A stretch of 32,000 nucleotides of DNA, taken from NCBI RefSeq assembly GCF_000020385.1, contig NC_010814.1:3180001-3212000 (forward strand), written 5' to 3'. How positions within the stretch are numbered: position 1 is the stretch's first letter; each line of letters starts with the position of its first letter. The position numbers and the translations under genes were made by a program. Below, one piece after another: positions 3,344-29,437 of this stretch. This DNA is from Trichlorobacter lovleyi SZ (GTDB lineage: Bacteria; Desulfobacterota; Desulfuromonadia; Geobacterales; Pseudopelobacteraceae). The notes under the pieces are model-generated. The model made no database searches. It was not told where the DNA came from and was given only the letters and a program-made list of their open reading frames with translations.

Positions 3344-4285
3344 ATGCGATGTCCCCCTTTCCTTCTGAGCCTGTTACTCATCTCCATCATTTTGCTGACT
3401 GTAGCGTCACCATCAAATGCAGACAGTTTTTCTGCCGACGTCGGCGCAGGTATACTGGTTATCAGCAAGTCAGACAACCTTTGGGGGCGGGGCAAATCAT
3501 CCATTGCCAGCCTGGGGGACAGCCCCAAAAGCCAGACGGTTGTCATGGCAATACCTGCGCTGCTGCTGCGCTATCGCCAGGACTCCCTGAAAAACACCTG
3601 GTTTGCTGGCGCCACAGAAGAGGACTACGGCCGGGTGGCGATCGGGGTTAAACATGATCTGGAAAAAGGGGCGGTTGACGCGGCCCTGTTCTACTCATTC
3701 ATGGGCAGTGAATGGGAAGACCCCTACACGCTTAACAGAAACGCTACCAGTGTACAAAATTTCGGTTTCCGGGCCGGTTGGGAGAAAATTGCAGGAAGCC
3801 CTTTCGCCGCGCACTACACCGTTTCAGTAAAACTGGTGAATAATGATCTAAGCGGAGAACGTTACCCTGACCTGAAACGGGACGGCACAAAGCACCGCCT
3901 GGGGGTCACCTATACGCTCAAGCTGGCTGATACTCTTACGCTCACTCCCTCACTGGCTTATGAGCGAGAAAGCGCAGAAGGCGCTGCAAACCGTTACAGC
4001 TCTCCCACCGGGGCGGTGTCGCTGATCTGGCGGCAGCAGGACCTGAGTTGGATCAACAGGGTCTCAGGATCCTACGCCTTCCATGACCACGTCAATCCGG
4101 TTTTTGGCAAGACTCTGAAGGAACCGGGCTATAGCGCAGCCTCCCTCGCCCTATGGAAAAATCCTTTTGATTTCAAAAAGTACTGGCTAACTGCCGGCAT
4201 CGTCTACGAGCAGACCCTTCCTAACATCACTTTTTTTGAAAAACGCTCAAACTACTTCTTTCTGCTGGGCGGGTATTCGTTCTAA
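3344..4285 (+). CDS. putative outer-membrane beta-barrel protein
   Basis: AAGGAG RBS, signal peptide ending SNADS, alternating amphipathic strands, and a C-terminal GGYSF with terminal Phe typical of BAM substrates. Confidence 0.65.
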   Translation: MRCPPFLLSLLLISIILLTVASPSNADSFSADVGAGILVISKSDNLWGRGKSSIASLGDSPKSQTVVMAIPALLLRYRQDSLKNTWFAGATEEDYGRVAIGVKHDLEKGAVDAALFYSFMGSEWEDPYTLNRNATSVQNFGFRAGWEKIAGSPFAAHYTVSVKLVNNDLSGERYPDLKRDGTKHRLGVTYTLKLADTLTLTPSLAYERESAEGAANRYSSPTGAVSLIWRQQDLSWINRVSGSYAFHDHVNPVFGKTLKEPGYSAASLALWKNPFDFKKYWLTAGIVYEQTLPNITFFEKRSNYFFLLGGYSF

Positions 4286-4502
4286 GTTTTATTGACACCT
4301 TGTCTGGGTAGTTCTTAATCGTTGAAGGTACCCGTCCCTGGAAGGTTGTAGCACAGAGGTATTACACCTGAACATTAAGCAGCATTCGGATATTTTTAAG
4401 AAGTTTTTTAAAGGCGAAGGACAGCTTTACTATTACGGAAAGCAATTCCTGACATACCTCATCAGAGCATGGAAGCTTTGACCCAGAAAAGGAGAGACAG
4501 AG

Positions 4503-5021
4503 ATGACAACTGATGGAAAACCGTGGAGTCCCTATCTGGCAGGAGCACTGGCCGGGCTGGTCAGCATCGGTTCAGTCTGGTTTGCAGGCAAGTATTTTGG
4601 CGCCTCAACCACCTTTGTTAAGACCGCCGGGATGCTGGAGCAACTTTTTAGCCCTGAACGGGTAGCCCAGATGGAATATTTTATCAAGGAAGTACCCAAG
4701 GTGGACTGGCAAAGCATGTTTCTGGTCGGCATCTTTGGCGGAGCCCTGATCGCCTCCCTTACGGACGGTTCTTTCCGCGTACAAAAAATCCCGGCACTAT
4801 GGGAAAAGCGCTTCGGTGCAAGTCTCCCTAAGCGGAGCATTCTGGCCTTTATGGGGGGCACCATAGCCATGTTCGGGGCACGGCTGGCCGATGGCTGACC
4901 GAGCGGTCATGGGCTGAGCGGTTCGCTTCAGCTAGCGTTAAGTGGCTTTATCTCTCTGGCATGTTTTTTCATTGGTGGGATTATCATGGCCCGGATGCTG
5001 TATCGTGGAGGTGATCAATGA
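4503..5021 (+). CDS. YeeE/YedE (DUF395) sulfur-transport family membrane protein, first half of a split pair, with predicted selenocysteine at TGA 4896..4898
   Basis: The ORF stops at a TGA exactly where the family motif GGC(T/N)SGHGLSG has its invariant Cys: ARLADG-TGA-PSGHGLSGSLQLALSGFISLACFFIGGII. The frame stays open for 40 more codons and ends in an ATGA overlap with the next gene's start (5018-5021). A hairpin lies 14 nt after the TGA. Confidence 0.65.
4913..4932 (+). promoter_or_regulatory. candidate bacterial SECIS hairpin
   Basis: GCTGAGCG-GTT-CGCT(T)CAGC forms an 8-bp stem with one bulged U and a G/U-rich apex (GGUUC if the closing pair opens). It starts 15 nt after the A of the UGA. 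Confidence 0.4.
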
Positions 5022-5545
5022 GCCAGCTCGTGTACGGTTTGGTTACTGGCTTCTTATTCGGCTTCCTGCTGCAGAAAGGACGGGTTTTACGGTTTGAAAA
5101 ACAGGTTAACGCCTTGCTTTTCAAGGATCTGACCATCATCAAGTTTATGCTCTCCAGCGTAGCGGTCGCCATGGTGGGAACCTACCTGCTTGTCGATCTG
5201 GAACTGGCCAAGCTTTCGATCAAGGCAACCGTCCTGGGGGCAAACATAATCGGTGGCCTTTTGTTCGGGCTTGGCTGGGGTGTTCTGGGCTATTGTCCAG
5301 GCACCTCAATCGGTGCAGTGGCAGAGGGGCGCTGGGATGCACTCTGGGGTGTACTCGGTATGCTGGCCGGAGCTGCTCTCTACGCCGAGGCTTTTCCTGC
5401 CATGAAAGCCACCATACTTACCTGGGGAAATCTGGGTAAAGTCACCCTGCCACAACTAATGGGGATTAACCACTGGTTTGTGATCGTGCCGTTTGTAATC
5501 GGAGCGCTGTTTCTGTTCCGCTGGATTGAAAAGAAAGGACTGTAA
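5018..5545 (+). CDS. YeeE/YedE (DUF395) sulfur-transport family membrane protein, second half of split pair
   Basis: Multi-TM protein with the GYCPGTS motif typical of the second DUF395 repeat. Its start overlaps the extended stop of the upstream gene. Confidence 0.85.
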   Translation: MSQLVYGLVTGFLFGFLLQKGRVLRFEKQVNALLFKDLTIIKFMLSSVAVAMVGTYLLVDLELAKLSIKATVLGANIIGGLLFGLGWGVLGYCPGTSIGAVAEGRWDALWGVLGMLAGAALYAEAFPAMKATILTWGNLGKVTLPQLMGINHWFVIVPFVIGALFLFRWIEKKGL

Positions 5546-5597: not shown

Positions 5598-6050
5598 ATG
5601 ATCAACGGCATCAAAAAATTTGAAAAGCTGGTTATCAAGGTGCTGGTTGTGCTGATGGGGGTAGTATTGCTGCTCAGTACGCTTGAATTGGTATGGGTTA
5701 TCGTAAAAGACATCATGTCGCCACCGTATCTGATACTGGATATAGATGAGCTTTTGGAACTGTTTGGTATCTTTATGCTGGTACTGATAGGGATTGAGTT
5801 GATGGAGACCATCATCAAGACCTACATGGACGAAGCCCCTGACCACGCCCGTATCGTGATTGCCGTTGCGATCATAGCCATCGCCCGCAAGGTAATCATT
5901 CTTGATATGAAAGAACTTTCAGGGGTCGCCTTGCTTGGCATTGCAGCAATTATTCTGGCGCTCACGGTTGGTTATTATCTGATTCGAAAAAGTGATCAGG
6001 GCTTGCACAAACCTCAAAAAGAACAGACACCGAACACACCGGCAACGTAA
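5598..6050 (+). CDS. PsiE-family (phosphate-starvation-inducible E-like) membrane protein
   Basis: GGAGAG RBS; 150 aa with 4 predicted TM helices; the IGIELMETI-type segment is recalled from PsiE-like proteins. Confidence 0.55.
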   Translation: MINGIKKFEKLVIKVLVVLMGVVLLLSTLELVWVIVKDIMSPPYLILDIDELLELFGIFMLVLIGIELMETIIKTYMDEAPDHARIVIAVAIIAIARKVIILDMKELSGVALLGIAAIILALTVGYYLIRKSDQGLHKPQKEQTPNTPAT

Positions 6051-6494: not shown

Positions 6495-6884
6495 TTGTAT
6501 GCAAACAACCAAGCACCTGACAGACAAGGCTCCCCCGTGAACAATGACCGTGCTGAAAAACATCAACTGCTGCGCCAGCGGGCCGAACAACTTTTGGCAA
6601 CTGATCCGGGGCGGTTCAGGACACCGGAACAGGCCGATCTTGTTGGGCTGTTGCATGAACTGGCGGTCTTTCAAGCTGAACTCGAGATGCAGAATGAGGA
6701 TCTACTGCTTGCCAATCAGCAGCTTGAAGAGACCAGGCAACAGTATGCGCGTTTGTATGAACAGGCACCGGTTGGATATCTCAGACTGAACGAGCAGGGA
6801 ATTATTCTTCGTCATAATCAGACCTTCATTGAAATGATCCATTCGGATCAGAACATGCTGGTTAACAAACCGTTGGCAACCTTA
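6495..6884 (+). pseudogene. 5' fragment (130 codons) of a multi-domain PAS sensor gene interrupted by an IS element
   Basis: The N-terminal coiled-coil/PAS start (LHELAVFQAELEMQNEDLL...YEQAPVGYLRLN) is paralogous to the N-terminus of the 11373 gene. The native reading frame is broken at 6884/6885. The start codon is uncertain (TTG 6495 or GTG 6537). Confidence 0.8.
6876..6884. repeat. target-site duplication, left copy (GCAACCTTA)
   Basis: The identical 9-mer directly flanks the other IS end at 8125..8133. Confidence 0.8.
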
Positions 6885-8124
6885 CACTGCTGTCCCATAG
6901 TTTTCAAAGCAGCGCCAGTTGAGGATTTGGCAATGCTTTCGTTGGTTTGAATAAGCTTTCCAAGTCTCTTCGCTCGAACAGATTCAGCTGTAATAACCGT
7001 AACATCTGCTGCATCGAGATGGTGATCTTTGACATGAACTTCAACCAGGCCAGTACCAGGTACACACAGAGTGCTATCCAGATCTACGTCAGCACTGCGT
7101 TCTCCGAGGTACCGTAAAACGCCTTGATCTTCAGGTTCTGCTTGATCCACTTGAAGAACAGCTCAATCTGCCAGCGTTCCTTGTATAATTCGGCCACCAG
7201 TGCCGCAGGGATGTGGTTCGCGTTGGTGACGAAGCGGTACTCGTTGCCATCTTCGGCAATGAAGTGAACCAGGCGGAGGCTGCCCTTGATCCCCTTCAGG
7301 CTGATTTTCTGATCGGTGAGCACTCCCTGTGACCTGCGGCCCGGACGCTTCTTGAAATACTCAACCAGGGCGTTGTCCTTGAGCCGGGCTACAAAGAAGA
7401 TGCCGCTGTCCATCAGGGTCTGATACCAGTCGTAGTCGGTATAACCACGGTCAAAGACCACAAAGGATCCAGTCGGTAGCTTGAGCAGTCTGGCCCAGTT
7501 GATCTCATGCTCTTTGCCGGTGGTGACATCGAAGAACTCTGGCAGATATCCGTCAGCAGAAAGACCGACATGCAGTTTGATGGCACCCTTGGTCTTCTGG
7601 TAGCTGGCCCAGGGAAACACCTTTAGGCAGAGGTTGATGACCGTGGCATCAAGCAGGTACAGCTTGGCGTCCAGCTTGAACCGGTTCTTCGGTGCGATGG
7701 TCTGGCAACGGCCCAGCAGTTTGTGAAAGAGCTCTTTGTACAACTGATGTGGCTGTTCTTCATTCACCCGTGCCAATGTTGAACGGGGTACATCCCTGGT
7801 TCCCAGATGATAGAGCTTATGTCCTTGAACCTTGAGATTATCAACCAGATCTCGCAGGCTTTTACGGCCCGTCAGCTGGCCAACCAGCATGGCGGTGAAC
7901 TGGCTCCACCGTGAAAAAGAACGAAACTGCTGCCCGACATGATACTTGCGGGCGAGGGTCTCAAATTCATGTCTCTTGAAAAAACGAACAACTTGGTTAA
8001 GGACTGTGTTATTATGTGACACGGCTCTGATCTCCTCGTGTTTATTGGTGTTTTGGCGAACTCAATATACCACAAGTAGCTCTCAGAGCCTCCTCTTATT
8101 CAATCAATTTATGGGACAGCAGTG
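6885..8124 (-). mobile_element. IS4-family insertion sequence, 1240 bp
   Basis: Perfect 15-bp terminal inverted repeats (CACTGCTGTCCCATA at 6885..6899, reverse complement at 8110..8124), a 9-bp direct target duplication and one DDE transposase gene. Removing the IS plus one duplication copy restores the host ORF in frame. Confidence 0.9.
7084..8022 (-). CDS. IS4-family DDE transposase (DUF4372 N-terminus), ending at an in-frame TAG
   Basis: GTG start with a GAGGAG RBS. It carries the Y-(2)-R-(3)-E-(6)-K signature in LYKERWQIELFFKWIK. After the TAG at 7084..7086 the same frame continues with transposase-like sequence (IWIALCVYLVLAWLKF...) down to a TGA at 6904..6906. Confidence 0.85.
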   Translation of the reverse strand: MSHNNTVLNQVVRFFKRHEFETLARKYHVGQQFRSFSRWSQFTAMLVGQLTGRKSLRDLVDNLKVQGHKLYHLGTRDVPRSTLARVNEEQPHQLYKELFHKLLGRCQTIAPKNRFKLDAKLYLLDATVINLCLKVFPWASYQKTKGAIKLHVGLSADGYLPEFFDVTTGKEHEINWARLLKLPTGSFVVFDRGYTDYDWYQTLMDSGIFFVARLKDNALVEYFKKRPGRRSQGVLTDQKISLKGIKGSLRLVHFIAEDGNEYRFVTNANHIPAALVAELYKERWQIELFFKWIKQNLKIKAFYGTSENAVLT

Positions 8125-8133
8125 GCAACCTTA
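8125..8133. repeat. target-site duplication, right copy (GCAACCTTA)
   Basis: Identical to 6876..6884. Confidence 0.8.
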
Positions 8134-10434
8134 TTAACAGCTGAAGATCGTAACATCTTCTATGCTCGTTTCAGCGCACTGTTTAAAAATCCTGTTGGTA
8201 AAAATATTGAACTGTGCTTCTCCCTGCCCAGAGGAAAAAAACTTGTCACCAGCCTGACTGCCCGCAGGGATCTGCACTGCATCACCGCCGACGCAGTACA
8301 ACCGACACTTCTCGTCATCATTTCCGACATCAGCGAGATCTGCCGCACCCGCCATGCTTTGGAACAGGCCCGTCTGGAGGCGGAAGGCACCTGTAACCGG
8401 CAAACCCAGCTGTTGGTTGAGACTCGAAAACTCAGTCGTCTTTACCTGCTGCTTTCACGCATAAATCAGCTGATTATACAGCACCCTCAGCAACAGGAGC
8501 TGTACAGGGAGGTCTGTGATATAGCTGTACTGGATGGCGGAATTGCTACTGCGTGGATAGGATCTATAGAGAAAACAGGAGTAATCACTCCGTTGGCAAG
8601 TTGCGGAATGACACTTGAACAACTGGACTGTCTGGAAATCAACAGTTACGGCACCTTCTTGCAGGAGAGCAAAACCTTTATAAACAACAATCTGCTTGCA
8701 GAACCGGATCTCACCCGCTGGCAAAGTGCTGTGGTGAACTGTGGATTCCAGTCAGTGGCCACCTTGCCGATCAAGGCCAGAAAAGGCCTTACAGGCTGTT
8801 TTGTCCTCTATGCAAAGGAACCTGACTTCTTTGATGATGCAGAAATCAGGCTGTTGGAGGAGATAAGCCGCAACATTGGTCACGCCCTTGATGTGGCTGA
8901 AATGGACCGTGAACAGGAGCAGGCCAGAGAACAGTTGAGCTATCTTGCCCGCCATGATCCGTTGACCGGTTTAAACAACCGGCTGATGTTTTCCAGCCAC
9001 TTGGCCATGGCCTTGGAAAGAGCCGCCAGGCAGGGCACCCTGTTGGCCCTGTTGCTGTTGGACCTTGACCGATTCAAGGATGTAAACGACAGTTTTGGCC
9101 ATGCCGCCGGAGATGAGTTGCTTGTACAGATGGCAAAACGGATTACCGGCCGGCTGCGCATGTCCATCAATCAGGTTGAAGACATCAGGGACTATGTCAA
9201 CTATATCCTGAGCAACCCCGCAGAATTGACCACGCTCTACCGGGAACTTCTGATCGGAGTAACCAGTTTCTTCCGCGATCAGGAGGCCTTTGATTTTCTG
9301 GCCAGCAATGTCCTGCCAGATCTGTTTCGTAATGCCACCAGCCGTGAGATCCGCTTCTGGGTTGCAGCCTGCTCCACCGGTGAAGAGGCCTATTCGTTAG
9401 CCATTCTGGCCCGTGAATGCCTTGAAAAGCTGGGCAGTTCCCATGACATCAAGATCTTTGCCACCGATATTGATCGTGACGCCATTCACTATGCCGCTGC
9501 CGGCAGCTACCCGGAAAGCATTGCCGCAGACCTGTCACCGCGAATCCTGTCAAAATACTTTCACAAGCGGGATGACAACTTTCAGATAGCCCGCACTATT
9601 CGTGAAATGGTGGTCTTTGCCCAACACAACCTGATCAAGGACCCGCCCTTTACCAATATCGATCTGATCAGCTGCCGTAACGTACTGATCTATTTCCAGC
9701 CTATTCTGCAACGCAAGGTGTTCGAGTTCTGTAATTTTTCACTGGCGGCCAACGGTGCACTCTTCCTGGGCAGCAGCGAATCAACCGGTGAAATGGCCTC
9801 CTATTTTGATGTGCTTGACCAAAAACTGAAGATTTTCCGTTCCAAAGGCAGAATGAAGCCCCTTTCAGATACCCACCTGCCTAGTGTCTCCGACACCCGT
9901 TTCCATGAAATGAAGGGGCAGTTTGCCATTGCACGCCGGGCTGTGCGGGCAACGGAAGAAGAACGGGTCATGGAGCGTTTCATTGAGGCTGCCAGCTCAG
10001 ATTATATCCCCCTGGCCCTGGTGGTTAACGAACAGCTTGAGGTCCAACATATCTTTGGAGATGCTACCGGATACCTCAAGCTCCCATCCGGCAAAGTGGT
10101 CAACGACATCTCGAAAATGGCGGTCAAGGAACTGGCAATCCCTCTGGCCACGGGTATTCAGAAAGTATTCCGGCAACATCAGGAACTGCGTTTCTCAAAC
10201 ATCCGGGTCAGCCAACCGGATGGAAACCGTCTGATTGATATGCGGATTAAACTGTTACCGGCAAAAAAAGAGCAGGATCATCTGATTGCAGTATTCATTA
10301 CTGAGACCAGGAAAAATGATTCAAACGATAGCGGCCAGCCGGTACAGACCTATGACCTCTCAAAAGAGGCAGAAGACAGGATGCGGGACCTGGAACATGA
10401 ACTGCAGTTTACCCGTGAAAATCTGCAGGCAACC

Positions 10435-10560
10435 ATTGAAGAGCTGGAAACATCCAATGAAGAGCTACAGGCTACCAACGAAGAACTGTTGGCCAGTAAT
10501 GAAGAACTGCAATCCACCAACGAGGAGCTGCAATCCACCAACGAAGAACTTTTTACGGTC
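10435..10560 (+). repeat. six tandem 21-bp (heptad) repeats encoding [42 protein letters not shown]
   Basis: Direct reading shows two adjacent units that are near-identical at the DNA level. This is the coiled-coil linker typical of CheR-PAS sensor proteins. Confidence 0.8.
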
Positions 10561-11372
10561 AACGCTGAATATCAGAGCAAAATCATTGAACTGACTGAAT
10601 TGCACAACGACCTTGACAACCTGCTCTCTGCAACCCAGATAGGTAACCTGCTGCTTGACGAAAACATGGAGGTACGCCGCTTTTCTAAACGGGTCTGTGA
10701 TATCTTCAAGTTGCTGGATAGCGACATTGGCCGTCCGATCACCCACATCACCCATCACCTTTTAAATTGCGACCCGATTGCATTGATCAGGGATGTCCAG
10801 ATCACCTCAAGGCCTCAGGAGCTTGAAGTGCAGACCCAGGATGGCCGTTGGCGTCTGATGCGAATAGTCCCCTACGCCATCGGCCCCAAGACCTTTTCCG
10901 GCACGGTGGTCTCTTTTGTTGACATCAACCTGCTCAAACTGGCTCAAGAAAGCGCCTGTGAGATGCAGCAGCTGTTTGCCGACGTGGTCCATTCATCTCC
11001 GGCCCTGGTCTGGCTGGCCGACACCAGCAAAGGATGTATCTGGTTTAACGAGCCCTGGCTGGCCTTTACCGGACGAACCATGGAACAGGAGCTGGGTAAC
11101 GGCTGGGCAGCCGGAGTCCACCCCGATGATTTTGAACGTTGCCTGAAAATCTATACAGAGTCCTTTGATCAGATGAAACCGTTTTCAATGGAATACCGTC
11201 TGCGTCGCCATGACGGTGTCTACCGTTTGCTGCTGGATGAAGGGCGGCCCCGCTTCAGGCAGGACGGCAGCTTTGCCGGCTATATCGGTGCCTGTCTGGA
11301 TATTTCCGACAAAACCTGCCCGTTTGACCAACCTAACTGCATGATGCACGCAGTCCGCTCTGGAGCCACGGC

Positions 11373-12332
11373 ATGACATCACGAAACGAAAATAATTTCA
11401 TGCAATTACGAAAAAGGGCCGAGACGCTCCTCAACGCAGCTCCTCAGCCGGCCTGCGACCTGGCGCCTGACGAAGTTAAGGCCTTGGTGCATGATCTTTC
11501 AGTGCACCAGATAGAGCTTGAGCTGCAAAATGATGAACTCCTGCGCGCCCAGCAGCTGATAGAGAAATCGCGGGATGAACTGGCCCGGCTCTACCATCAG
11601 GCTCCGGTTGGCTATCTGAGCCTGAACCGGATCGGCATTATTGAACGTTGCAATCAGACCTTTAGTCGCATGGTGGGTAAAACCTGTGAAAAACTGGCTG
11701 GCAAGCCTCTGGCAGACCTGCTGGAAGGGATGGATCGCGATATCTTTCTGGGAAGATTCCGATCTTTTTTCAACCACCCGGCAGATAAATTCATTGACCT
11801 GTATTTCCCTGCACGGGGAGAATCGAACGGATTCCATGGACGGATAACCGCCAGCCTTGAAACCAATCCGGCAGATCAGCCGGATGATCGGGAGCCAAGC
11901 CTGCTGGTGATTGTTCAGGATATCTCCGAACAGAGAATAGAATCGCTGATCCGCATCAAAATTGAACAGACACTGAAAAACCACGACCTTTTTGTCTCGA
12001 CGCTACTGGAAACCATTCCGATCCCGCTTTTCTACAAAGACACACAGTGTCGCTACCTGGGCTGCAATGAGGCTTTTAAAGCGTTTACCGGGCTTACGGA
12101 ATCCCAACTGATCGGTAAGACCGTGTTTGATATTTCTCCACCTGAGATTGCGGTTCAGTACGATGAAAAGGACCGCCACTGCTGGAGCACCCAGGCAGCC
12201 AATCCTATGAATGGAAAGTCAGGACTGTTGACGGAACGTTCAGAACCGTTGTCTTTAATAAAGCCACTTTTAATGACATTGACGGGCAATTGGCAGGTAT
12301 TGTCGGTACCATACAGGATATTACCGATCTGA
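11373..12332 (+). CDS. 5' portion of a frameshifted PAS/PAS hybrid sensor histidine kinase gene
   Basis: ATGA overlap with the upstream stop. The N-terminus is paralogous to the 6495 gene. The second PAS domain loses consensus after ...VQYDEKDR, and the tail of the ORF (HCWSTQAANPMNGKSGLLTERSEP...) is out-of-frame read-through. Confidence 0.75.
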   Translation: MTSRNENNFMQLRKRAETLLNAAPQPACDLAPDEVKALVHDLSVHQIELELQNDELLRAQQLIEKSRDELARLYHQAPVGYLSLNRIGIIERCNQTFSRMVGKTCEKLAGKPLADLLEGMDRDIFLGRFRSFFNHPADKFIDLYFPARGESNGFHGRITASLETNPADQPDDREPSLLVIVQDISEQRIESLIRIKIEQTLKNHDLFVSTLLETIPIPLFYKDTQCRYLGCNEAFKAFTGLTESQLIGKTVFDISPPEIAVQYDEKDRHCWSTQAANPMNGKSGLLTERSEPLSLIKPLLMTLTGNWQVLSVPYRILPI

Positions 12333-13531
12333 AGGATTTACAACTGACGCTGAAACAGGCAAAGGATGTGGCAGAGCAGGCCAACCGTGCCAAAAGCGAA
12401 TTTTTAGCAAACATGAGCCATGAACTACGCACGCCTATGAACGGCGTGGTCGGCATGGCAGAATTACTTTCGATGTCTGAACTTTCTGAAGAACAACAGG
12501 ATTTTGTTGCGGCAATCAAACAAAGCGGACAGAATCTGGTCAAGATCATCGGCGATATTCTTGATCTGGCAAAAATAGAAGCAGACAAGGTAGAACTGGA
12601 ACACTCCACCTTCTCCCTCCGCTCAACAATTGACCTGGTACTGAGCCTGCTCCATCCCCAGGCTCAGGCCAAAGGCCTGATTATTTTCAACCGCGTGGAG
12701 CCGGAACTGCCGGATTTATTCCGGGGAGATGCAGGTCGACTGAACCAGATTTTACTGAATCTGCTGGGCAATGCCGTCAAGTTCACCTCACAGGGCAGTA
12801 TCAGTATAACGGTGCTACCGGGCCAGGTTACAGACAACCGCCTGACGCTCTGTTTCAGTATTAGCGATACCGGCGTCGGCATCCCCCATACCAGCCTGCA
12901 CAAACTCTTTATTCCTTTCAGCCAGGTAGACAGCTCAACCACCCGTAAATTCGGCGGCACCGGCTTGGGGTTAGCCATCTCGAAACAACTCGTAGAACTG
13001 ATGGGGGGGACTATCAGCGTTGAAAGCGTCGAAGGCAGCGGCTCCACCTTTTTTGTCAGACTACCGCTGGAACTGGTCGTAGATACAGATACAGCCTGCC
13101 AACCCCTGCCCTCATCTCTGGCAATAGCTACCAACGGGCATAATCCGGCTGACTACTGCATTCTCGTGGTTGAAGACAACGAGCTGAATCTCAAAGTACT
13201 GGAACTTATGCTGACCAAGCTGGGCTACCGGACAAAAACTGCCACAGATGGACTAAAAGCCCTGGAGTTATTAAAAACAGATGCTATTAATCTGGTACTG
13301 ATGGACTGCAGTATGCCGGTACTCGACGGCTATCTGACCACCGCAAAAATCAGAAAACCGGAAACCGGCACAAGGAAACCTGACATTCCCATTATCGCCA
13401 TAACCGCACGGGCCATGTACGGAGACAAGGAAAAGTGCATACAGACTGGAATGAATGACTATCTGGCGAAACCGATCAACTGCACCGAGCTTGCCGATAA
13501 AATCAATCTTTGGCTGAACCGCGCTTCCTGA
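12290..13531 (+). CDS. 3' portion of the same gene: end of PAS, HisKA, HATPase_c and receiver domain
   Basis: H-box SHELRTPMNGVVG, N-box LLNLLGNAVKFT, G-boxes DTGVGI and GGTGLGLAIS, and a receiver domain (LVVEDNELN...LMDCSMPVLDG...KP). The frame is open upstream to 12167, where it encodes LLEHPGSQSYEWKVRTVDGTFRTVVFNKATFNDIDGQLAG, the missing PAS strands. Confidence 0.85.
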   Translation: MAGIVGTIQDITDLKDLQLTLKQAKDVAEQANRAKSEFLANMSHELRTPMNGVVGMAELLSMSELSEEQQDFVAAIKQSGQNLVKIIGDILDLAKIEADKVELEHSTFSLRSTIDLVLSLLHPQAQAKGLIIFNRVEPELPDLFRGDAGRLNQILLNLLGNAVKFTSQGSISITVLPGQVTDNRLTLCFSISDTGVGIPHTSLHKLFIPFSQVDSSTTRKFGGTGLGLAISKQLVELMGGTISVESVEGSGSTFFVRLPLELVVDTDTACQPLPSSLAIATNGHNPADYCILVVEDNELNLKVLELMLTKLGYRTKTATDGLKALELLKTDAINLVLMDCSMPVLDGYLTTAKIRKPETGTRKPDIPIIAITARAMYGDKEKCIQTGMNDYLAKPINCTELADKINLWLNRAS

Positions 13532-14660
13532 CACAAACGGTGTGCATCCGCTCCAGGGCCTGCTGCAGCAGGCTCCGGGGACAACCGAAATTGAGCCTGA
13601 CAAATCCCGGTGCTCCGAACGGCGCCCCATCCGACAGCCCCACCCCGGCCTGCTCGAACAGGCCGGCCGGATCAGCCACCCCCAGCCCTTGTGCATCGAT
13701 CCAGGCCAGATAGGTCGCCTCCACCGGCCAGGTCTTCAGGCCGGGCATGGCCTGAATTGCCTCCAGCACCAGATCACGATTCTGCCGCAGATACTCGAGC
13801 AGAGCCTGACGCCAGGGCTCGCCATCACGATAGGCAGCCAGGGTGGCTGTATAGCCCAGCAGATTGACATGGGGCACGATCCCGGCCATGACGTCTCTAA
13901 AGGACCGCCTCAGCTGCTTGTCGGGAATAACGGCAAAGGAGCAGCCCAGACCGGGGATATTCCAGGTCTTGCTGGGGGCCAGCAGGGTAATGGTACGCCT
14001 GGCCAGTTCCGGTTTAAGGCAGGCGAAAGGAATATGCGTTTTGCCACTATCCAGCACCAGCCCGGCATGGATCTCGTCGGAACAGACCATCAGATCATGA
14101 CGCTCAACCAGATCAGCCAGCGCCAGCTGCTCCTCCCGGCTCCAGACCCTGCCCACCGGATTGTGGGGGCTGCAGAGCAGCAGCAGCCTGGTGCGGGGGG
14201 TAATGGCCTGCTCCAACACCTCCAGATCCATCTCCCAGCGTCCCTGCTGTTCAACCAGCGGCACACTGATCAGCTCCCGCCCGGCCAGTCCCGGCGCAGT
14301 TAAAAACGGCGGGTAGACAGGTGTAAAGGTAGCAACGGCATCCCCGGGAGCCCCCACGGCCCGGCAGCTCACATTCAGGCCGCAGACCAGCCCCGGCAAC
14401 CAGACCAGCCACTTCGACTGCACCTGCCAGCCGTATTCTTGCCGCAGCATTGCCAGTACAACAGCAACCAACTCCTCTGGCGGCCTGCTGTAGCCGAAAA
14501 CACCATGTTCAACCCGTTGCTGCAGAGCCTCCAGCACTGCCGGCGGTGAACGGAAATCCATGTCCGCCACCCAGAGCGGAATAATATCCTGCCCGGCATA
14601 GCGATCCCATTTCTCACTACCGGTATTACGACGGTCAATGACCGTATCAAAATCAAACAT
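13503..14660 (-). CDS. MalY/PatB-type PLP-dependent C-S lyase, candidate ovothiol sulfoxide lyase OvoB
   Basis: Motifs MFDFDTVIDRRNTGSEKW, SPHNPVGRVW, SDEIH and the PLP-lysine APSKTWN. Its ATG overlaps the ovoA stop (TGATG), so I prefer the start at 14660 over the listed 14675. Confidence 0.8.
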   Translation of the reverse strand: MFDFDTVIDRRNTGSEKWDRYAGQDIIPLWVADMDFRSPPAVLEALQQRVEHGVFGYSRPPEELVAVVLAMLRQEYGWQVQSKWLVWLPGLVCGLNVSCRAVGAPGDAVATFTPVYPPFLTAPGLAGRELISVPLVEQQGRWEMDLEVLEQAITPRTRLLLLCSPHNPVGRVWSREEQLALADLVERHDLMVCSDEIHAGLVLDSGKTHIPFACLKPELARRTITLLAPSKTWNIPGLGCSFAVIPDKQLRRSFRDVMAGIVPHVNLLGYTATLAAYRDGEPWRQALLEYLRQNRDLVLEAIQAMPGLKTWPVEATYLAWIDAQGLGVADPAGLFEQAGVGLSDGAPFGAPGFVRLNFGCPRSLLQQALERMHTVCVRKRGSAKD

Positions 14661-16354
14661 CACAACAGCTCCCATACCGTTAATTCAGCAATGCTATGCT
14701 GGAACTTGCGTCGGGTCTCGCGGATCACAAACGGCAGATCCAGCGGTTCCCCCACCAACCTGAAACGGGGAGACAGGACCGTCTTCAGGCCGTCAATCCC
14801 CCAAACCGGCTCACCTGCCTCACGATAGCCCCCCAACCACTCTTCTTTCCTGGCAAACTCTTCAGACCAGCTGTAGGGAGAGGTGACCACCAGCAGCCCA
14901 CCCGGATTGATCCGCTGGTGAATGGTGCTCAAAAACCTGCGTGGCGAGTAAAGCCGGTCAATCAGGTTGGCTGCCAGCACCAGATCATAACCGCGAAACT
15001 TCTCCGGCAGGTTACAGGCATCGGCCTGATAGAACTGTACCCGTTGTCTGGTCTGCTCAAGCCCGAACTCAGCCAGGGTCACCTCGTGGAACGAAACGAT
15101 CTCACCCTCTTCAGGAAAGGCATAGCGCAGCCCCCCTTCCTCCTGCATCCTGGCAGCCAGCCTGAAGAAGCGGGTGGAAAAATCCAGGCCGGTGACCTGC
15201 TGAAAACCGCCCCTGGCCAGCTCAAAACTGGCCCGCCCCACGGCACAGCCCAGATCCAGGGCATGCCCCAACCTGCGCCCCTGCATCAGCCGAAGGCAGA
15301 TCTCAGCGCAGCTCTTTTGAAAGTTAGACACGCCAAACTGCTCCGGCCCGTAGTGGGCATGGCAATACTGGGCTGCCAGGGAATCACGTTCGTATTGATC
15401 ATCATGGATCACCACCGGGGCGCTGCTCTCAACATAACGAAACCCGGCGTGCTGAAAGAAATGCCGCCGGAAGGCATAGCGGGCATGCCGGGTGGCCTCA
15501 TTGCCGGTTGAGATCCAGGAGCCACCCTTGATCAGGTTATGACGGGTATCAAAGGTGGGGGTGGAGAAGTCATCGTACCAGGGATGCACGGCAAAACCGT
15601 GAAACGGGTAGATCGGGGTCTCGGTCCATTGCCAGACATTGCCGATCAGATCAAAAAAATCACCCTGCTGAAAACGATCCACCGGACAGGAAGAACTCCA
15701 GTATGCCAGGTTGATATTGCCCGGCGCACGTTCCCAGTCTGTCTGATCAGGCAATTTGCAGAGATCATGCAAGCGGTGCCATTCGTCCTCGGTGGGCAAA
15801 CGGACCGGCTTCCCGCTCTGCGCGGCCTTCCAGGTGCAGAACGCCCTGGCCTCCAGATAATTGACCTCCACCGGCCAGTTCCAGGGCATCGGGATCTCAC
15901 TGGCCATGGTACGCAGCAGCCAGCCAGCCTCACTTTTGATCCAGAACAGGGGCTGCTCCGCCTGTTTAAACTGACGCCAGTTCCAGCCTTCCTCAGTCCA
16001 CCATTGTTGTTCCTGATAACAGCCTGCCTCAACAAAGGCCAGAAATTCACGGTTGGAGACCAGATACCGGGCGGCCATAAAGTCGGCCACTTCTGCAGCA
16101 TGGCTGCCGTACTCGTTATCCCAGCCGTAGAGCGGGTGATCTTTGGGCCTGCCCAGCTGCACCGTGCCGGCGGGAACCGGCAGCAACTGATTCTGAGGAG
16201 CCTCACCCGCCTCTGGACAGATATCCCAGAACTCCAGCTGCTGCACCTGGTCATGGGGCAGTTGGCGGATCAGCACCGACGAGGTTTCCAGATGAATCCG
16301 TTCATGCTCAATCCCCATCATGACCGCCCACCAAGGTGTGAAACGCGTCGACAT
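14660..16354 (-). pseudogene. ovoA: 5'-truncated ovoA (5-histidylcysteine sulfoxide synthase fused to a SAM-dependent methyltransferase)
   Basis: The HX3HXE motif (IEHERIHLE) sits at residues 15-23, where full-length OvoA carries roughly 150 aa of DinB-like domain ahead of it. FGE-sulfatase-type core (GNVWQWTE) and a C-terminal methyltransferase (LDLGCAVGRASFELA). Unrelated phage-side sequence begins immediately upstream. Confidence 0.75.
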
Positions 16355-16423: not shown

Positions 16424-17188
16424 TTAGTTGTTTGTGATCAACAATTCCTTCCTCGCTTTGCCCTTACTGGCCCCACCGACAGTATAATTTATATCGACGG
16501 ACTTAATCTGGAAGTCAGAGAACACATCTCTGATGTCTGGATGATCATTAATGGTCAACAAAGCCTTTCCCTGGAGTGTTTTCAGTTGTTCGGCAAGGGC
16601 CAAGTATTGGTCAAACTCAAAAGGCACTCCGTAGCCCTCTGTTTGCCAATATGGAGGGTCCAGCAAAAAGAATGAATGCGGCCGGTCATACTTTGCGATG
16701 CATCGTTCCCAAGGGAGATGTTCGACCGTTACCCTGGACAGTCTGATATGGGCCTGGCTGAGATCTTCTTCCAGACGGAGCAGATTCAGCCGAGGAGGTG
16801 ATGTCGTTGCGGTACCGAACGTCCGGCCATCAACCTTGCCGCCAAACGATAACTTTTGAAGGTAGAAAAATCTAGCTGCTCTTTGTATATCCGTTAATGT
16901 TTCTGGCGGCGTATCTTGTAGCCACTCATAAATTTTACGGCTCGTAATTGCCCACTTGAATTGTCGAACAAATTCATCAAGGTGATGTTGAATGACCCGG
17001 TAGAGTGATACCAGATCATGGTTGATGTCGTTTACCACTTCAACCTTTGACATCGGCTTTGAAAATAGTATTGCAGCAGCACCGGCAAACGGTTCGACAT
17101 AGCAGGTATGTTGGGGGATCATTGGGATTATGTGGCGGGCCAGGCGACGCTTGCCGCCTATCCAGGGGATAATAGGGCTGTGATTCAT
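16424..17188 (-). CDS. dam: DNA adenine methyltransferase (Dam / D12 class N6-MTase), orphan
   Basis: N-terminal IPWIGGKRRLA, FAGAAA SAM-binding motif and DPPY catalytic motif (FFLLDPPYW). No adjacent restriction gene. Confidence 0.85.
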   Translation of the reverse strand: MNHSPIIPWIGGKRRLARHIIPMIPQHTCYVEPFAGAAAILFSKPMSKVEVVNDINHDLVSLYRVIQHHLDEFVRQFKWAITSRKIYEWLQDTPPETLTDIQRAARFFYLQKLSFGGKVDGRTFGTATTSPPRLNLLRLEEDLSQAHIRLSRVTVEHLPWERCIAKYDRPHSFFLLDPPYWQTEGYGVPFEFDQYLALAEQLKTLQGKALLTINDHPDIRDVFSDFQIKSVDINYTVGGASKGKARKELLITNN

Positions 17189-17724: not shown

Positions 17725-20058
17725 CTACACCTCCACAACCAGGGTGATCGTGTCCGGTGCCGAATCATCCCCGGGGGCCACGCGGGCCTCACGGACAAAC
17801 CCTACCGGTGCACCGGTAATGAATCCCAGCGTTATACTATCCCCAAACTCTACCTCTATGTTGTCCAGGAACACCTCAACCTCATGAACCCAGTGGCGGG
17901 CAGCGTACCAGGTAAGGTAGGCATCACGCAGGGCCGTGGCGATAGCGCTGCTGGTGATGAATTGGAACAGGAACAGATCAGGCCGGTCCTGCACGCCGTA
18001 CCGTGTCTGACTGGCGCTGTTGACGTCACTGACAGTTTGACGGTACGGGTCAGCCGAGGTGGAGGCATAGTCCAGATCAAACTTGAGGGCGATCTTGTTG
18101 ATAATGTCTTCATAGGCTGATTTTCTGCGGCTTGAGTTGCGCACCATGGCAGACGTGATAGGTTTTTGTGACGCCCCAGCACCACGTGGCACCAGTTTTG
18201 AACCGGCACTGGACACCTTGAACAACGCCCAGGACTCGAACGCTATCCGCGTGAGCCAGTAGAGGGCTGATTGCTGGGTGGTAATGGCCCCGTTGATGGC
18301 AGTGGTGATGTTGCTGCTGCCGGTGGCTGCAGGGTAGCCCACGCGGGACAGGATGTCATTGCAGGCCAGCAGAGGGGTGGCAACGGTGGTGCGGGCCACG
18401 TTGGCCATCAGCTGATCCATAGTGTAGACGTTGGCGATACTGTTGCCGATCAGAGACAGATCGCCGGTCAGGGCCACACCGGCAGCCGGTGAATAGGTGG
18501 TTGCGGTGCCGGTCTGGATCTCAAACCAGATCTCTTTACAACGACAGTCAGACCCGTTCTGCATGACGATCTTGGCAAATGACGTTGAGGGGTAGCTGTA
18601 AAGGTCTGACATGTTGGTGAATGGGTACCAGCCGGTATAAAACGTGCCCGAGGCGAACACGTTACCAATTGCCTGGTTCAGCACCATTACACCCTTGATA
18701 AACAGCTGGATACGGACAGGCGAACCATAATCATAGCCGCACTCGGCAACCACACCAACTCTGATGTTGAGACAGCTGGCAATGTTATTGACGGTGGTGT
18801 AGGTAAAGCCTGGGCTGGCGTTATAGGTCCCGTCACAGACCTGTGACAGCTGCACCGCTAAATTGCCTTGCATATAGGTGGCCGTGTCGTTGTCAAATGC
18901 CCGCTGGGCATAGGTGCCGTTATAGTTGTTGGCAAGGGTACCGCCGTAGACATAGATCACGTTGTTGGGCCGCAGCACGGTTGTGCTGGTGCTGGTCGGG
19001 TGGGTGTGGTTGCCCTGATCAACATCCAGAGCGTTGTTGATGGCCAGCCAGATCTGCTGCATCACTGCCGGGGTAGTGGCGATGGTGATAGCGGCCTTGC
19101 CGGGATAGGCGGCCAGCTGGTTTCCGCTGGTGCCCAGGTACTTGGTAACGCTGGCAGTGATATTGACATCCACTCCGGCCACACGGATGTAGATCTCGCC
19201 GATGGTGTCCAGGGCATGATCAGCCAGGATAAACACAATCGGTGTGGCCTTTTTCTCAATCACCACGCTGCCCATGGAGTGGTTGGCAATGGTGGTACCG
19301 TTAACCCCCCTGGTGACCGTCAGGACGCGCGTGGTGGTATTGGCAGCGGTTACCGTGACCTGCTCGGCATCAATGTAGAAGGTTTTACCGACCACGGTGG
19401 TGGATGGCAGCTCTGAGACAGTGATGGTGGTATCGGTTGATAGCGCTTGATTGGCCAGGCTGGTGACCCATCCAGCATCAACACAGAGCGCTGGCAGCTT
19501 GTTGACGGTACCGAACACGATCGGCAACAGCTTGCCTATGTGATCAGGATCCGCCAGGGGGTAGGTAACCGAATCCAGCACAGTACCCAGGGTGCCCTGC
19601 AGTTTCAGGGTGGCATCCTGCAGACGCAGCGAGACCCCTTCATCGTTTTGATCGACCGAGACTTCCTTGACGTACCCCACAAACTTTTTGATTGCAGCGG
19701 TACCGGCCACCATGCCTTCGTACCAGTGCTGGATCTCTGCGGTGCTGGTCTCGATGTCGTAGGTATCTACCTGGTAGATGATGTTGGCGGCATCGGTGGG
19801 GTCGGCCATCAGGTGCAGGTCATAGTCTGCAATGGTCATCTCCCCCAGACCATTGGTGATGCCCTCTTTCAGCACGCCCCAGCTTGATACCCATGCTTTG
19901 GTGGTCTGGCTGGTGCCGTCTGCAGCAGTAATGGTCAGCACCCGGTCTGAGATATACAGCGGGGTGGTACCGGTGCGGGACAGCTTGAGTATCCAGACCG
20001 GCTTGGCACCGGTGGTCTTATTTTTTTCGGCAGTGATAGCTGCTGGCAGGGTTTGCAT
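17725..20058 (-). CDS. large phage tail / host-specificity-type protein (777 aa)
   Basis: Its position after the tape-measure gene and small tail genes, its size, and beta-rich Thr/Gly/Asn-rich sequence. The start MQTLPAAITAEKNK overlaps the upstream stop (TAATG); the listed start at 20172 lies inside the upstream gene. Confidence 0.6.
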   Translation of the reverse strand: MQTLPAAITAEKNKTTGAKPVWILKLSRTGTTPLYISDRVLTITAADGTSQTTKAWVSSWGVLKEGITNGLGEMTIADYDLHLMADPTDAANIIYQVDTYDIETSTAEIQHWYEGMVAGTAAIKKFVGYVKEVSVDQNDEGVSLRLQDATLKLQGTLGTVLDSVTYPLADPDHIGKLLPIVFGTVNKLPALCVDAGWVTSLANQALSTDTTITVSELPSTTVVGKTFYIDAEQVTVTAANTTTRVLTVTRGVNGTTIANHSMGSVVIEKKATPIVFILADHALDTIGEIYIRVAGVDVNITASVTKYLGTSGNQLAAYPGKAAITIATTPAVMQQIWLAINNALDVDQGNHTHPTSTSTTVLRPNNVIYVYGGTLANNYNGTYAQRAFDNDTATYMQGNLAVQLSQVCDGTYNASPGFTYTTVNNIASCLNIRVGVVAECGYDYGSPVRIQLFIKGVMVLNQAIGNVFASGTFYTGWYPFTNMSDLYSYPSTSFAKIVMQNGSDCRCKEIWFEIQTGTATTYSPAAGVALTGDLSLIGNSIANVYTMDQLMANVARTTVATPLLACNDILSRVGYPAATGSSNITTAINGAITTQQSALYWLTRIAFESWALFKVSSAGSKLVPRGAGASQKPITSAMVRNSSRRKSAYEDIINKIALKFDLDYASTSADPYRQTVSDVNSASQTRYGVQDRPDLFLFQFITSSAIATALRDAYLTWYAARHWVHEVEVFLDNIEVEFGDSITLGFITGAPVGFVREARVAPGDDSAPDTITLVVEV

Positions 20059-20429
20059 TACAGGTACTCCTCCAGGGTGAACGAAACCTGGTATTTGCCT
20101 GGGTGGGTCTCCACAGCTTTGACGGTCCCCTTGATCTTGGCGGTGTGAGCGGAGCTGGCATTGTCGTACCAAGTCAGGGTGTACTCATACCCGTGGCAGA
20201 GATCGGCCAGCTGCAGCAGGCTGCTCAGCTGGGCATCAGTTACTTTTTTGTGAACCAGCTGCCATGTGATTGATTTAACTCCACGGTCGTACAGATAGAG
20301 GCTACCGCCACGGGTAATGTCGCTTGGCTGGTTCCGCCTGCGGGTGGGGGTGCAGACCGATGGAGCTGACGGCATCTGACAGGACAGTGTGGTACCACCT
20401 ATGGTGGCGGTGAATAGGTTGGCGCTCAT
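20058..20429 (-). CDS. small phage tail-module protein, paralogue 3
   Basis: Shares ...PxDI(T/S)RGG(S/I)(L/F)YLYDRGVK... with the 20426..20869 product. Overlapping start and stop codons. Confidence 0.6.
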   Translation of the reverse strand: MSANLFTATIGGTTLSCQMPSAPSVCTPTRRRNQPSDITRGGSLYLYDRGVKSITWQLVHKKVTDAQLSSLLQLADLCHGYEYTLTWYDNASSAHTAKIKGTVKAVETHPGKYQVSFTLEEYL

Positions 20430-20869
20430 GGTGCCCCCAACATTTCAGAACCATCAGCCATCAGCAGGGTATCGCCATCAGCACCGATGTACGGTTCCGG
20501 ATCCAGGTTGAGGTATTCGGCCACGGTCAGGGCCACGGTGAAGTGATCCGCCAGCGGCTCTTTAACCGTGATTTTTGAGGTGAGGTGGACAGACCGCTCT
20601 CCGTACAGTGGATCAACCCAAACAAACGGGATCTGCGCCCCTTTTACGGCATCGCCAAAATCCAGCAGGGCACCAACCACGGCAGGGGCCACGCGGGTGA
20701 ACAACAGGCGGTGCTCACGGATTTTCACGCCACGGTCGTACAGATAGAATATACCGCCACGGCTGATGTCATGGGGCTGAACACGGCGGACAGTAACCGG
20801 GTATGGTGCAGAGTGCAGGCGGTTCATGGCCACGGTCAAAGTTTCGGTTTTGAAGATGCTGCCACTCAT
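20426..20869 (-). CDS. small phage tail-module protein, paralogue 2
   Basis: Clear similarity to the 20058..20429 product (DISRGGIFYLYDRGVK versus DITRGGSLYLYDRGVK, and a C-terminal ...EYL). Confidence 0.6.
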   Translation of the reverse strand: MSGSIFKTETLTVAMNRLHSAPYPVTVRRVQPHDISRGGIFYLYDRGVKIREHRLLFTRVAPAVVGALLDFGDAVKGAQIPFVWVDPLYGERSVHLTSKITVKEPLADHFTVALTVAEYLNLDPEPYIGADGDTLLMADGSEMLGAP

Positions 20870-21240
20870 GGGGTAATCACCAGCAGCTTAACGGTGACCT
20901 GGAATACATCGGTGCTTTTCTCTGTAATGGTCAGTTCCGGCTCGGCAAAACGGGCTGTAATGGTGCTGCCATCACTGAACGTTACAGTAAACAGGGTGGC
21001 CATGGCATTCATGGCGTCAAAAAACGACAGCAGGCTGTCACGGTTGGCGCGGGGCATGTTATCCCAGCTGACCGGTATGGTCTGAGTTTTGGCACGGGGG
21101 GTCTGGGCAATGGGCAGGCCTGCAGTGGTTTTGCCAATGGCCTGCAGCCAAGCCCGCTCAGACTGATCCGGCCGGGGCCGGTGGGTGAACGTAACGCTGG
21201 CTGCAGGACTGGCGCAGCTGAATGAGACAACGGCAGGCAT
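20866..21240 (-). CDS. small phage tail-module protein, paralogue 1 (distant)
   Basis: Same size class and position, similar C-terminal beta pattern (FQVTVKLLV), overlapping start and stop codons. Confidence 0.5.
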   Translation of the reverse strand: MPAVVSFSCASPAASVTFTHRPRPDQSERAWLQAIGKTTAGLPIAQTPRAKTQTIPVSWDNMPRANRDSLLSFFDAMNAMATLFTVTFSDGSTITARFAEPELTITEKSTDVFQVTVKLLVITP

Positions 21241-22901: not shown

Positions 22902-22905
22902 CTTA

Positions 22906-23427
22906 ATCGGGTACAGCGACCCGCAACAGATCTTTTCACTGCTGCCCCTGTTTGAGTCTGGCGGGGTGGATTTCCTGGTGCTGCATCCCCGCACCGTGCT
23001 GCAGGAATACAAAGGATTGGCCGACCACGGCATTACAACCCGGGTGGTGCAGGAAACCGGCCTGCCGGTGATTGCCAACGGAGATGTACGGACAGTAGAG
23101 GATGGGCTGCGGGTGCTGGAACAGACCAAGGCGGCCGGTCTGATGCTGGGCAGGGGTGCCATTGCCGACCCGCTGTTGTTCCAGCGGCTACGGGCAGGCA
23201 GGCCTGATCAGCCGGAGCGGGCTGCACGGGCTGCCATGCTGCGCCACTACCTGGCCGGACTGCTGGAACGCTATCAGGGGATATTCTGCGGAGAACAGCA
23301 GATTCTGGGCAAGGTCAAGAGCGTGTTTGCCACCATGGATGATCCTGATTTTGCAAAACAGATCAAAGGGCTTAAAAAGGCCCGCACGATCAGGCAGTTT
23401 GCAGACCTAGTAGTCCAGCTGACCTGA
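22906..23427 (+). pseudogene. dus: 3' fragment of a tRNA-dihydrouridine synthase (dus) gene
   Basis: GYSDPQQIFSLLPLFESGGVDFLVLHPRT...VIANGDV...GLMLGRGAIADPLLF is the C-terminal half of the Dus TIM barrel plus its helical domain. The N-terminal FMN and catalytic half is missing. The ORF-track prefix (22741..22905) is antisense to the phage gene. Confidence 0.75.
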
Positions 23428-24942: not shown

Positions 24943-25827
24943 TCAGGCCTTAACCACCTTGATCCGGTCCAGATTCATCTGGCCCAGACCGCGTTTATGG
25001 GCCGCAACCGTCACCGCAATATCAGCCGGTTTCAGACCGAACAGGGTGGTGGCATAGGCGTCGGCGGCCACGATATCGGCTGAGGCGATCACCTTGTTCA
25101 GCACCTTGACATCGGCAAGGTTCCCCCCTTGGGGGCCGTGGGCCGTCAGGATTCTGGTGGCATCAATGATGGTCAGGTGGCTGCGCAGGTGACTGTTCAC
25201 ATCGGCCAGGGCCACCGCAAGGTTGCGATGGGTAAAGCCGCGGTTGCCCCCCATCACCCCCATGATGTTTTTCAGCCCCAGGGTCAGCCTGGACAGGCCG
25301 TGGTGCTTGGCCACCGGCAGGTTGATAAAGACATTGGCAGCCAGCGCCTCATCATACAGCTCCCACTCCTTCAGGAACTGCCCCTTCAAGGCGGTCATCC
25401 TGAACCGCTCCGGTTCAATCTGTTTGCACTCCACCCCTTTAAGCCCCTTCAGCGCCTTTTCAATACCGCTGTTCACATAGCAACGCCGCGGATCATTGCA
25501 GGTATGGTCAAAGACCTTGACCTTCCTGGCGCCGGCTGCCAGACACTCCTCCACCACGGCCCGCACCACCAGCGGGTGGCTGTTGGCGGCAAACTCCGGC
25601 GAGCGATCCCAGCCCATGTTGGGCTTGACCACCACCAGATCCCCGGCTTTGACATAGCGTTTCATACCACCCACCGCGTTGATAGCCCGACGGGTAATGG
25701 CCGGGTAGTCAGTCCCTTCGGCCACCGCCACCAGTGACATCTCCGTTGCAGCCAGCAGTTCCTGCACCAGCACCGGTGCCAGTACCGTTGCTGCCCCTGC
25801 GCTCTTGATAAAGGTACGGCGATCCAT
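24943..25827 (-). CDS. Tat-exported DUF362 domain protein
   Basis: Twin-arginine signal MDRRTFIKSAGAA. GGAGG lies 5 nt before the ATG at 25827 (the listed GTG at 25833 sits inside the RBS). The stop directly abuts the start of the polyferredoxin gene. Confidence 0.75.
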   Translation of the reverse strand: MDRRTFIKSAGAATVLAPVLVQELLAATEMSLVAVAEGTDYPAITRRAINAVGGMKRYVKAGDLVVVKPNMGWDRSPEFAANSHPLVVRAVVEECLAAGARKVKVFDHTCNDPRRCYVNSGIEKALKGLKGVECKQIEPERFRMTALKGQFLKEWELYDEALAANVFINLPVAKHHGLSRLTLGLKNIMGVMGGNRGFTHRNLAVALADVNSHLRSHLTIIDATRILTAHGPQGGNLADVKVLNKVIASADIVAADAYATTLFGLKPADIAVTVAAHKRGLGQMNLDRIKVVKA

Positions 25828-25881
25828 GGTCACCTCCGCTAATCGGGAATTGATTCCAGTCTACCCCTGTTACCGATGAAA

Positions 25882-29430: not shown

Positions 29431-29437
29431 CGTAATT

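Follow-up and report, generated by a model that had tools for sequence, protein, structure and literature searches.

A Predicted Selenocysteine Codon in One Half of a Split YeeE/YedE-Family Transporter of Trichlorobacter lovleyi SZ

The Gene Pair and Its Reading Frames

The window (the whole 32-kb stretch of Trichlorobacter lovleyi SZ DNA that was analysed) contains two adjacent forward-strand genes of the YeeE/YedE family. Both products matched PF04143 (Sulf_transp) above its gathering cut-off of 27 bits. Gene 1 (4503..5021, +) encodes a complete PmpA-like half-protein of 172 residues with a predicted selenocysteine (Sec) at residue 132. Its match of 80.1 bits covered profile positions 175-310, which correspond to the C-terminal half of the family. 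Gene 2 (5018..5545, +) encodes a PmpB-like half-protein of 175 residues, which matched profile positions 12-149, the N-terminal half of YeeE, with 57.4 bits.

A Shine-Dalgarno-like sequence, AAGGAGAG (4489..4496, +), is located 6 nt 5' of the ATG of gene 1. Translation from the ATG at 4503 reached a TGA at 4896-4898 (+) in the context ...FGARLADG*PSGHGLSGSLQL..., and the same frame was open for 40 sense codons past this triplet, up to the TGA at 5019-5021. The latter stop codon shares the letters ATGA with the ATG of gene 2 (5018-5020). According to the codon comparison and the hydropathy profile, the 40 codons (4899..5018, +) encode the rest of the PSGHGLSG motif and a hydrophobic helix. Four hydrophobic segments were found in the gene 1 protein, and the fourth (residues 141-167) is coded wholly after the UGA. 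Hence, a product terminated at the UGA would lack one helix together with the active residue and the SGHG motif. The original prediction had described an ORF 4503..4898 that ends at a TGA, a continuation of 40 codons with a further hydrophobic helix, and an ATGA overlap with a second YeeE/YedE gene at 5019..5021, all of which were reproduced by translation. It had also held that the automatic ORF call truncates the protein, and the gene callers in every source database examined indeed cut gene 1 at 131 residues.

Gene 2 has its own Shine-Dalgarno sequence, GGAGGTGA (5007..5014, +), which lies inside the last codons of gene 1. The hydropathy profile of its product gave four to five hydrophobic segments. 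In the alignment to the Spirochaeta thermophila YeeE structure (StYeeE, 6LEO), Cys93 of gene 2, which is encoded by the TGT at 5294..5296 (+) within the motif GYCPGT, was placed on Cys91 without gaps, and a Leu occupied the position of Cys22. In all partner genes read in the correct frame, the position of Cys93 was occupied by Cys and never by TGA. Moreover, the pair of half-genes was conserved in all loci with the Sec form, and the ATGA overlap between the two genes was kept in 28 of 30 such loci.

Conservation of the TGA Codon and the Downstream Segment

The protein search with gene 1 returned thousands of relatives. The full-length relatives had 170-179 residues, contained ...ARLADGCPSGHGLSGSLQLAVSG..., and carried Cys at the position of the TGA in the window. 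The Cys of GCPSGHG or GCTSGHG in these homologues, including those of 172 residues, aligned with G-TGA-PSGHG in the window, and their last 40 residues shared about 90% identity with the translation after the TGA. The relatives nearest to gene 1, at 91-97% identity, were all annotated as 131-residue proteins ending in ...ARLADG. The same TGA, the open 40-codon tail and the ATGA overlap were present in the contigs of these relatives, namely the metagenome loci L001-L009 (9/9). Furthermore, a scan of species-representative genomes yielded 37 loci with a close homologue. The codon of Sec132 was TGA in 27 of them, including Geobacter/Trichlorobacter, Desulfobacterales and Desulfobacteraceae, Desulfobulbaceae, Syntrophales, Nitrospirota and Dissulfurispiraceae. 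It was TGT or TGC in the other 10, which comprised Chloroflexota, some Desulfovibrionaceae-like MAGs and two loci nested among the Sec forms. The TGA was thus conserved in 36 related loci (9 + 27) belonging to at least five orders.

The codons after the TGA were compared with those of the relatives. Synonymous differences from the window outnumbered non-synonymous differences in 29 of 30 comparisons, for example 21 vs 8 (L035) and 20 vs 5; the exception was L002, with 4 synonymous and 5 non-synonymous differences. As judged from these codon differences, the 40-codon tail is under purifying selection. The original prediction had stated that the Cys of orthologues should align with the TGA and that the downstream 40 residues should be conserved, and had regarded orthologues that end at the TGA as evidence to the contrary. 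The alignment of Cys with the TGA was found in the full-length homologues, the tail was preserved at both the residue and the codon level, and none of the Cys-form homologues among the genome loci ended at the TGA position.

The SECIS-Type Hairpin

A candidate bacterial SECIS hairpin was identified at 4912..4933 (+) on the basis of folding, covariation and the published bSECIS criteria. It consists of a 5' arm (4912-4920), an apical loop GUU (4921-4923) and a 3' arm (4924-4933) with a bulged U at 4927, and its Watson-Crick part spans 4913-4932. The hairpin has 9 bp and one bulge, starts 13-14 nt after the TGA, and has a UGA-to-loop spacing of 22 nt. These features agreed with the original prediction of a hairpin with a bulged U at 4913..4932, 14 nt after the TGA. 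The calculated energy was -11.4 kcal/mol (z = -2.18), and 4 of 200 shuffled sequences folded as well. The published criteria are an apical loop of 3-9 nt whose first two positions include a G, a stem of 4-16 bp, a distance of 16-37 nt from the UGA to the loop, and a minimum free energy (MFE) of -7.5 kcal/mol or lower (PMC13188914). The values for the hairpin at 4912-4933 lie within all four limits.

Taken alone, the hairpin is weak evidence. In a crude scan of the G+C-rich window, bSECIS-like hairpins followed about 12% of all 1289 TGA triplets, that is, roughly one in eight, so that such a hairpin does not discriminate by itself. The same scan missed the true site because of a competing MFE fold. 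The wider region of 65 nt after the UGA was not unusually stable (z = -0.04), and a gathering-threshold Rfam scan of the whole window gave no match of any kind.

The hairpin was compared across 29 Sec-type sequences, of which 23 were distinct. Across the 23 distinct sequences, 89.9% of the hairpin cells were paired, compared with at most 50% when the pairing was slid. Pair 18-37 was GC in 14 sequences and AU in 7, through two synonymous changes (Gly GGG/GGA and Leu CUN/UUR), and pair 19-36 showed one switch from C-G to U-A. The covariation score was 0.155 vs 0.099 for shuffled alignments, and none of 500 shuffles reached 0.155. The loop-proximal G25 and G26 were invariant in all Sec sequences. 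Moreover, the mean hairpin energy was -10.4 kcal/mol for the Sec forms, whereas that for the Cys forms was -6.6 kcal/mol (Mann-Whitney p = 0.0015); the Cys-type homologues used varied codons for the same peptide and folded more weakly. Among the evidence obtained from sequence comparison, the conservation of the TGA and the covariation of the stem decide the matter and raise the predicted SECIS element above chance.

Two other structures were evaluated. A competing hairpin in alignment columns 4-26 was the thermodynamic optimum for the 40-50 nt after the UGA, where it was slightly more stable than the SECIS candidate. It was rejected, as it showed no compensatory change, had a covariation below that of the shuffles, and was broken in 9 of the 23 sequences at two pairs. 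The RNAalifold consensus of the 29 Sec sequences gave a different, weak structure (-6 kcal/mol) with almost no covariation and was not adopted.

The two Cys types nested among Sec relatives were L018 (3394..3440) and L031 (3379..3425), with the Cys codons TGT and TGC. The greater part of the SECIS hairpin sequence was retained in both, and two or three changes disrupted it in each. These nested Cys forms suggest a recent Sec/Cys conversion.

Assignment of the UGA Codon

The UGA at 4896-4898 very probably encodes Sec. The original prediction that Sec stands in place of the invariant Cys of the family is supported by the alignment with Cys, the conservation of the TGA, the selection on the tail and the covarying SECIS hairpin.

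It is far less likely that the UGA mostly terminates translation, with the 131-residue, three-helix product as the main or functional form and Sec read-through as a minor, selenium-dependent event. Under such an arrangement, the availability of selenium would gate the assembly of a working transporter, which is improbable to the same degree. In its favour, Sec insertion in bacteria has RF2 as a competitor and often proceeds with low efficiency. The Shine-Dalgarno sequence of gene 2 also fits it, since gene 2 can be made without read-through. However, the catalytic residue, the SGHG motif and the last helix, which are conserved to the same extent as the remaining sequence, would be missing from the short product, and the absence of Cys-form homologues that end at the UGA position argues against a functional product of this length.

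A nonsense mutation or a sequencing error, which would make gene 1 a pseudogene or a mis-assembled Cys gene, can be given almost no credence. The stop at 131 residues in the gene calls of all source databases is the point in its favour, but 36 independent assemblies, which represent at least five orders, share this TGA. Purifying selection acts on the intact frame that follows it, and nearly all Sec loci retain the ATGA overlap between the two genes. One artefact common to all assemblies is excluded by the independent projects and lineages. Finally, nothing was found in favour of a non-Sec reading, either by near-cognate insertion of Trp or Cys or by a lineage-specific reassignment of UGA, and its probability is negligible: the codon aligns with Cys and not with Trp or Gly, the presence of the SECIS-type hairpin varies along with the TGA, with decay in the Cys forms, and TGA is the commonest ordinary stop in the window, ending 13 of its 25 genes, gene 1 included, so the code is not globally reassigned.

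Selenium Context and Previous Cataloguing

The assignment of Sec was considered together with the selenium metabolism of the organism. None of selA, selB, selC and selD was found in the 32-kb window, and no tRNA-Sec was detected there by ARAGORN and Rfam. No selenium gene lies beside the gene pair; yedF, selD and other selenium genes were not found nearby. The presence of the Sec machinery in Trichlorobacter (Geobacter) lovleyi SZ is taken from the literature on the strain: Table S2 of Peng 2016 includes Geobacter lovleyi SZ in its list of "all Sec-utilizing organisms" and assigns 12 selenoproteins to it.

The genes around gene 1 were matched to RefSeq proteins. The DUF2860 protein (3344..4285) was identical to WP_012471000.1, the gene 2 product to WP_012471002.1, and PsiE (5598..6050) to WP_012471003.1. 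On the basis of the consecutive accessions and the exact flanking matches to WP_012471000.1 and WP_012471002.1, gene 1 is almost certainly WP_012471001.1. This accession is given as the representative of the "YeeE/YedE family, GUxSG" in two reviews (Zhang 2022, PMC9312934; Zhang et al. 2026, PMC13188914), both of which class the Sec-containing family as predicted. The family was counted in 5 organisms in Table S3 of Peng et al. (2016), the only part of that study in which it is named, and it is unnamed in the main text of Zhang and Gladyshev (2008). Hence, a Sec-containing YeeE/YedE is already known, and gene 1 is almost certainly its published reference example, which answers the question raised in the original prediction of whether such a protein had been catalogued.

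The present analysis extends the catalogued entry in three respects. The Sec form was found in 27 of 37 related species-level genomes, compared with 5 organisms in 2016; the SECIS element gained support from covariation; and the Sec was placed at the Cys293 substrate-contact site of a putative PmpAB-type heterodimer. For annotation, the truncation of gene 1 at 131 residues in the source databases means that the functional protein is missed when Sec is not recognized, a case with which RefSeq and the selenoproteome literature already cope.

Proposed Mechanism of the Split Transporter

A working model was constructed from the residue equivalences, the homology and the recoding signature. In this model, genes 4503..5021 and 5018..5545 each encode one half of a YeeE/YedE (PF04143) membrane transporter that is split in two. 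During the translation of gene 1, the hairpin at 4912-4933 would act as the SECIS element and recruit SelB carrying Sec-tRNA(Sec). Sec would then be inserted at the UGA as residue 132, and translation would continue for 40 codons, which would supply the remaining part of the motif and the fourth transmembrane helix. The two products of about 170 residues most likely form a pseudo-symmetric heterodimer of the PmpA/PmpB type. In this heterodimer, Sec132 would be the outward-facing residue for substrate capture, equivalent to Cys293, and Cys93 of the partner would be the central essential residue, equivalent to Cys91. Both may line a narrow path through which sulfur (or selenium) would be transported, for instance as thiosulfate or as zero-valent sulfur.

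A role as an S-H...S hydrogen-bond donor has been proposed for YeeE. Selenolate is deprotonated at physiological pH, and Sec132 could thus not serve as such a donor, which suggests a covalent relay. The relay would be a transient covalent Se-S handover, of the selenenylsulfide or persulfide type, to the Cys of the partner. It is conceivable, at rather long odds, that the Sec form prevails in the split-transporter clade of anaerobic Desulfobacterota and Nitrospirota and moves the chalcogen by such a covalent Se-S relay. If true, the relay would alter how the transport mechanism of the entire YeeE/YedE family is understood. Gene 1 is among the very few predicted selenoproteins with Sec inside a membrane transport pathway, and its Sec takes the position of a residue that is essential in the solved YeeE structure. 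A comparison of the Sec and Cys forms could tell whether transport in the YeeE family uses covalent chemistry.

Other Features of the Window

Several features outside the gene pair were recorded. The reverse-strand ORF 14660..16354 is an OvoA-type gene with domains for a 5-histidylcysteine sulfoxide synthase and a 4-mercaptohistidine methyltransferase (TIGR04344, 491.8 bits; TIGR04345, 332.5 bits). It adjoins a PatB-family C-S lyase gene (13503..14675, -), and the two genes look like an ovothiol-type locus in an anaerobe. The OvoA-type ORF covers positions 138-444 of the OvoA N-terminal model, with about 137 N-terminal positions missing. Only 70 nt upstream is the beginning of a gene for a D12 DNA methyltransferase (16424..17188), and an insertion may thus have removed the 5' end of the OvoA-type gene.

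An IS4-family transposase gene (7084..8022, -; NF033592, 247.7 bits) is located between ORFs 6495..6950 and 8122..11376. The former is short and contains PAS only, and the latter encodes 1084 residues with GAF, a truncated GGDEF (profile positions 1-71 of 161), CheR and PAS. In relatives (L006), the gene after PsiE is a single intact PAS-GAF-GGDEF-EAL gene; it therefore appears that the IS has disrupted and rearranged its counterpart in the window. Further along, a PAS-domain ORF (11373..12332, +) and a HisKA-HATPase-receiver ORF (12290..13531, +) overlap by 43 nt in different frames. Either a single hybrid histidine kinase gene with a frameshift or two separate genes could account for this arrangement.

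Five consecutive reverse-strand ORFs of 815, 123, 147, 124 and 640 residues occupy 17725..23162. None of them had a Pfam match, and the two largest, which were the ones scanned, had no NCBIfam match. They adjoin the D12 DNA methyltransferase gene, and an AAA_21 (AbiEii-like) ATPase gene is present at 28044..29186. The region 17725..23162 may be a mobile or defence island. A cluster on the same strand (23407..31496, -) comprises a NapH/NapG-like polyferredoxin (23407..24942), a TAT-signal DUF362 protein (24943..25833) and radical-SAM methyltransferase-like genes (25882..27384 and 29628..31496), the latter with a B12-binding domain.

Comparison with Known Transporters

The catalogued Sec YeeE/YedE selenoprotein is the same gene, with the motif G-U-P-S-G and PF04143 membership, and nothing different in kind was found here. 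The selenium-linked YedE/FdhT proteins belong to the same Pfam superfamily and share with gene 1 some connection to selenium. However, YedE/FdhT is regarded as a transporter of selenium and contains no Sec of its own, whereas gene 1 is predicted to encode a selenoprotein. The YedE/FdhT models TIGR04112 and NF033796 gave 26.8, 34.3 and 38.7 bits, far below their cut-offs of 350 and 200 bits; the link of YedE-type proteins to selenium metabolism, to which the original prediction had pointed, hence does not hold for this pair.

YeeE/TsuA, represented by the S. thermophila structures 6LEO, 6LEP and 8J4C and by E. coli YeeE, shares the PF04143 fold family with the gene pair. The loop motif (G)GC.(S/I)GH, Cys91 and Cys293 all have equivalents in the two half-proteins. 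In particular, Sec132 aligned to Cys293 of S. thermophila YeeE/TsuA (6LEO, 8J4C). This Cys directly contacts the bound thiosulfate in a periplasmic indentation, and C91A and C293A abolish complementation, whereas C22A does not (PMC7449682). Unlike the pair, TsuA consists of one chain, which has about 340 residues and 9 TM helices. It also contains a third Cys (Cys22), in place of which the split proteins have Leu. The scores for the TsuA models were also far below the required values, at 44.4 and 48 bits vs 400 and about 30.5 vs 645 (NF041049 and NF052577).

TsuA works with TsuB/YeeD, and no such gene adjoins the pair. No TusA-like domain (tsuB/yeeD) was found among the neighbours in the window and nine diverse Sec loci, for which the very small ORFs were partly scanned, and no conserved neighbour such as TusA/YeeD or a rhodanese was shared by these loci. 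The neighbours in the nine loci included glycogen phosphorylase, DUF445, acyl-CoA dehydrogenase, endonuclease V, rubrerythrin-like, DUF255 thioredoxin-like, SulP, multihaem cytochrome and ZIP transporter genes. As neither a TsuB/YeeD-like partner nor a conserved neighbour was found in these loci, the transported substrate named above is a putative one. Directly beside the pair in close relatives is a gene for a P-type cation ATPase of 910 residues, downstream in L001 (4594..7329) and upstream in L003 (174..2906), where the copies look full-length. C-terminal fragments of the ATPase occur in L007 (789..1139) and L008 (1775..2125). The window has no such P-type cation ATPase gene and shows an intergenic gap of 217 nt.

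A split architecture of exactly this kind has been described for PmpA/PmpB from Serratia sp. ATCC 39006, which are likewise adjacent half-size genes with the same distribution of the Cys residues. PmpA is the C-terminal half with the equivalent of Cys293, PmpB is the N-terminal half with the equivalent of Cys91, and a PmpA/PmpB heterodimer has been proposed (Li et al. 2024, PMC11582611). The same paper reports the uptake of zero-valent sulfur by related proteins. PmpA and PmpB have about 130 residues and four predicted TM helices each, whereas the proteins encoded here have 172 and 175 residues. Furthermore, the Cys293 equivalent of PmpA/PmpB is a Cys, whereas gene 1 is predicted to carry Sec at this position.
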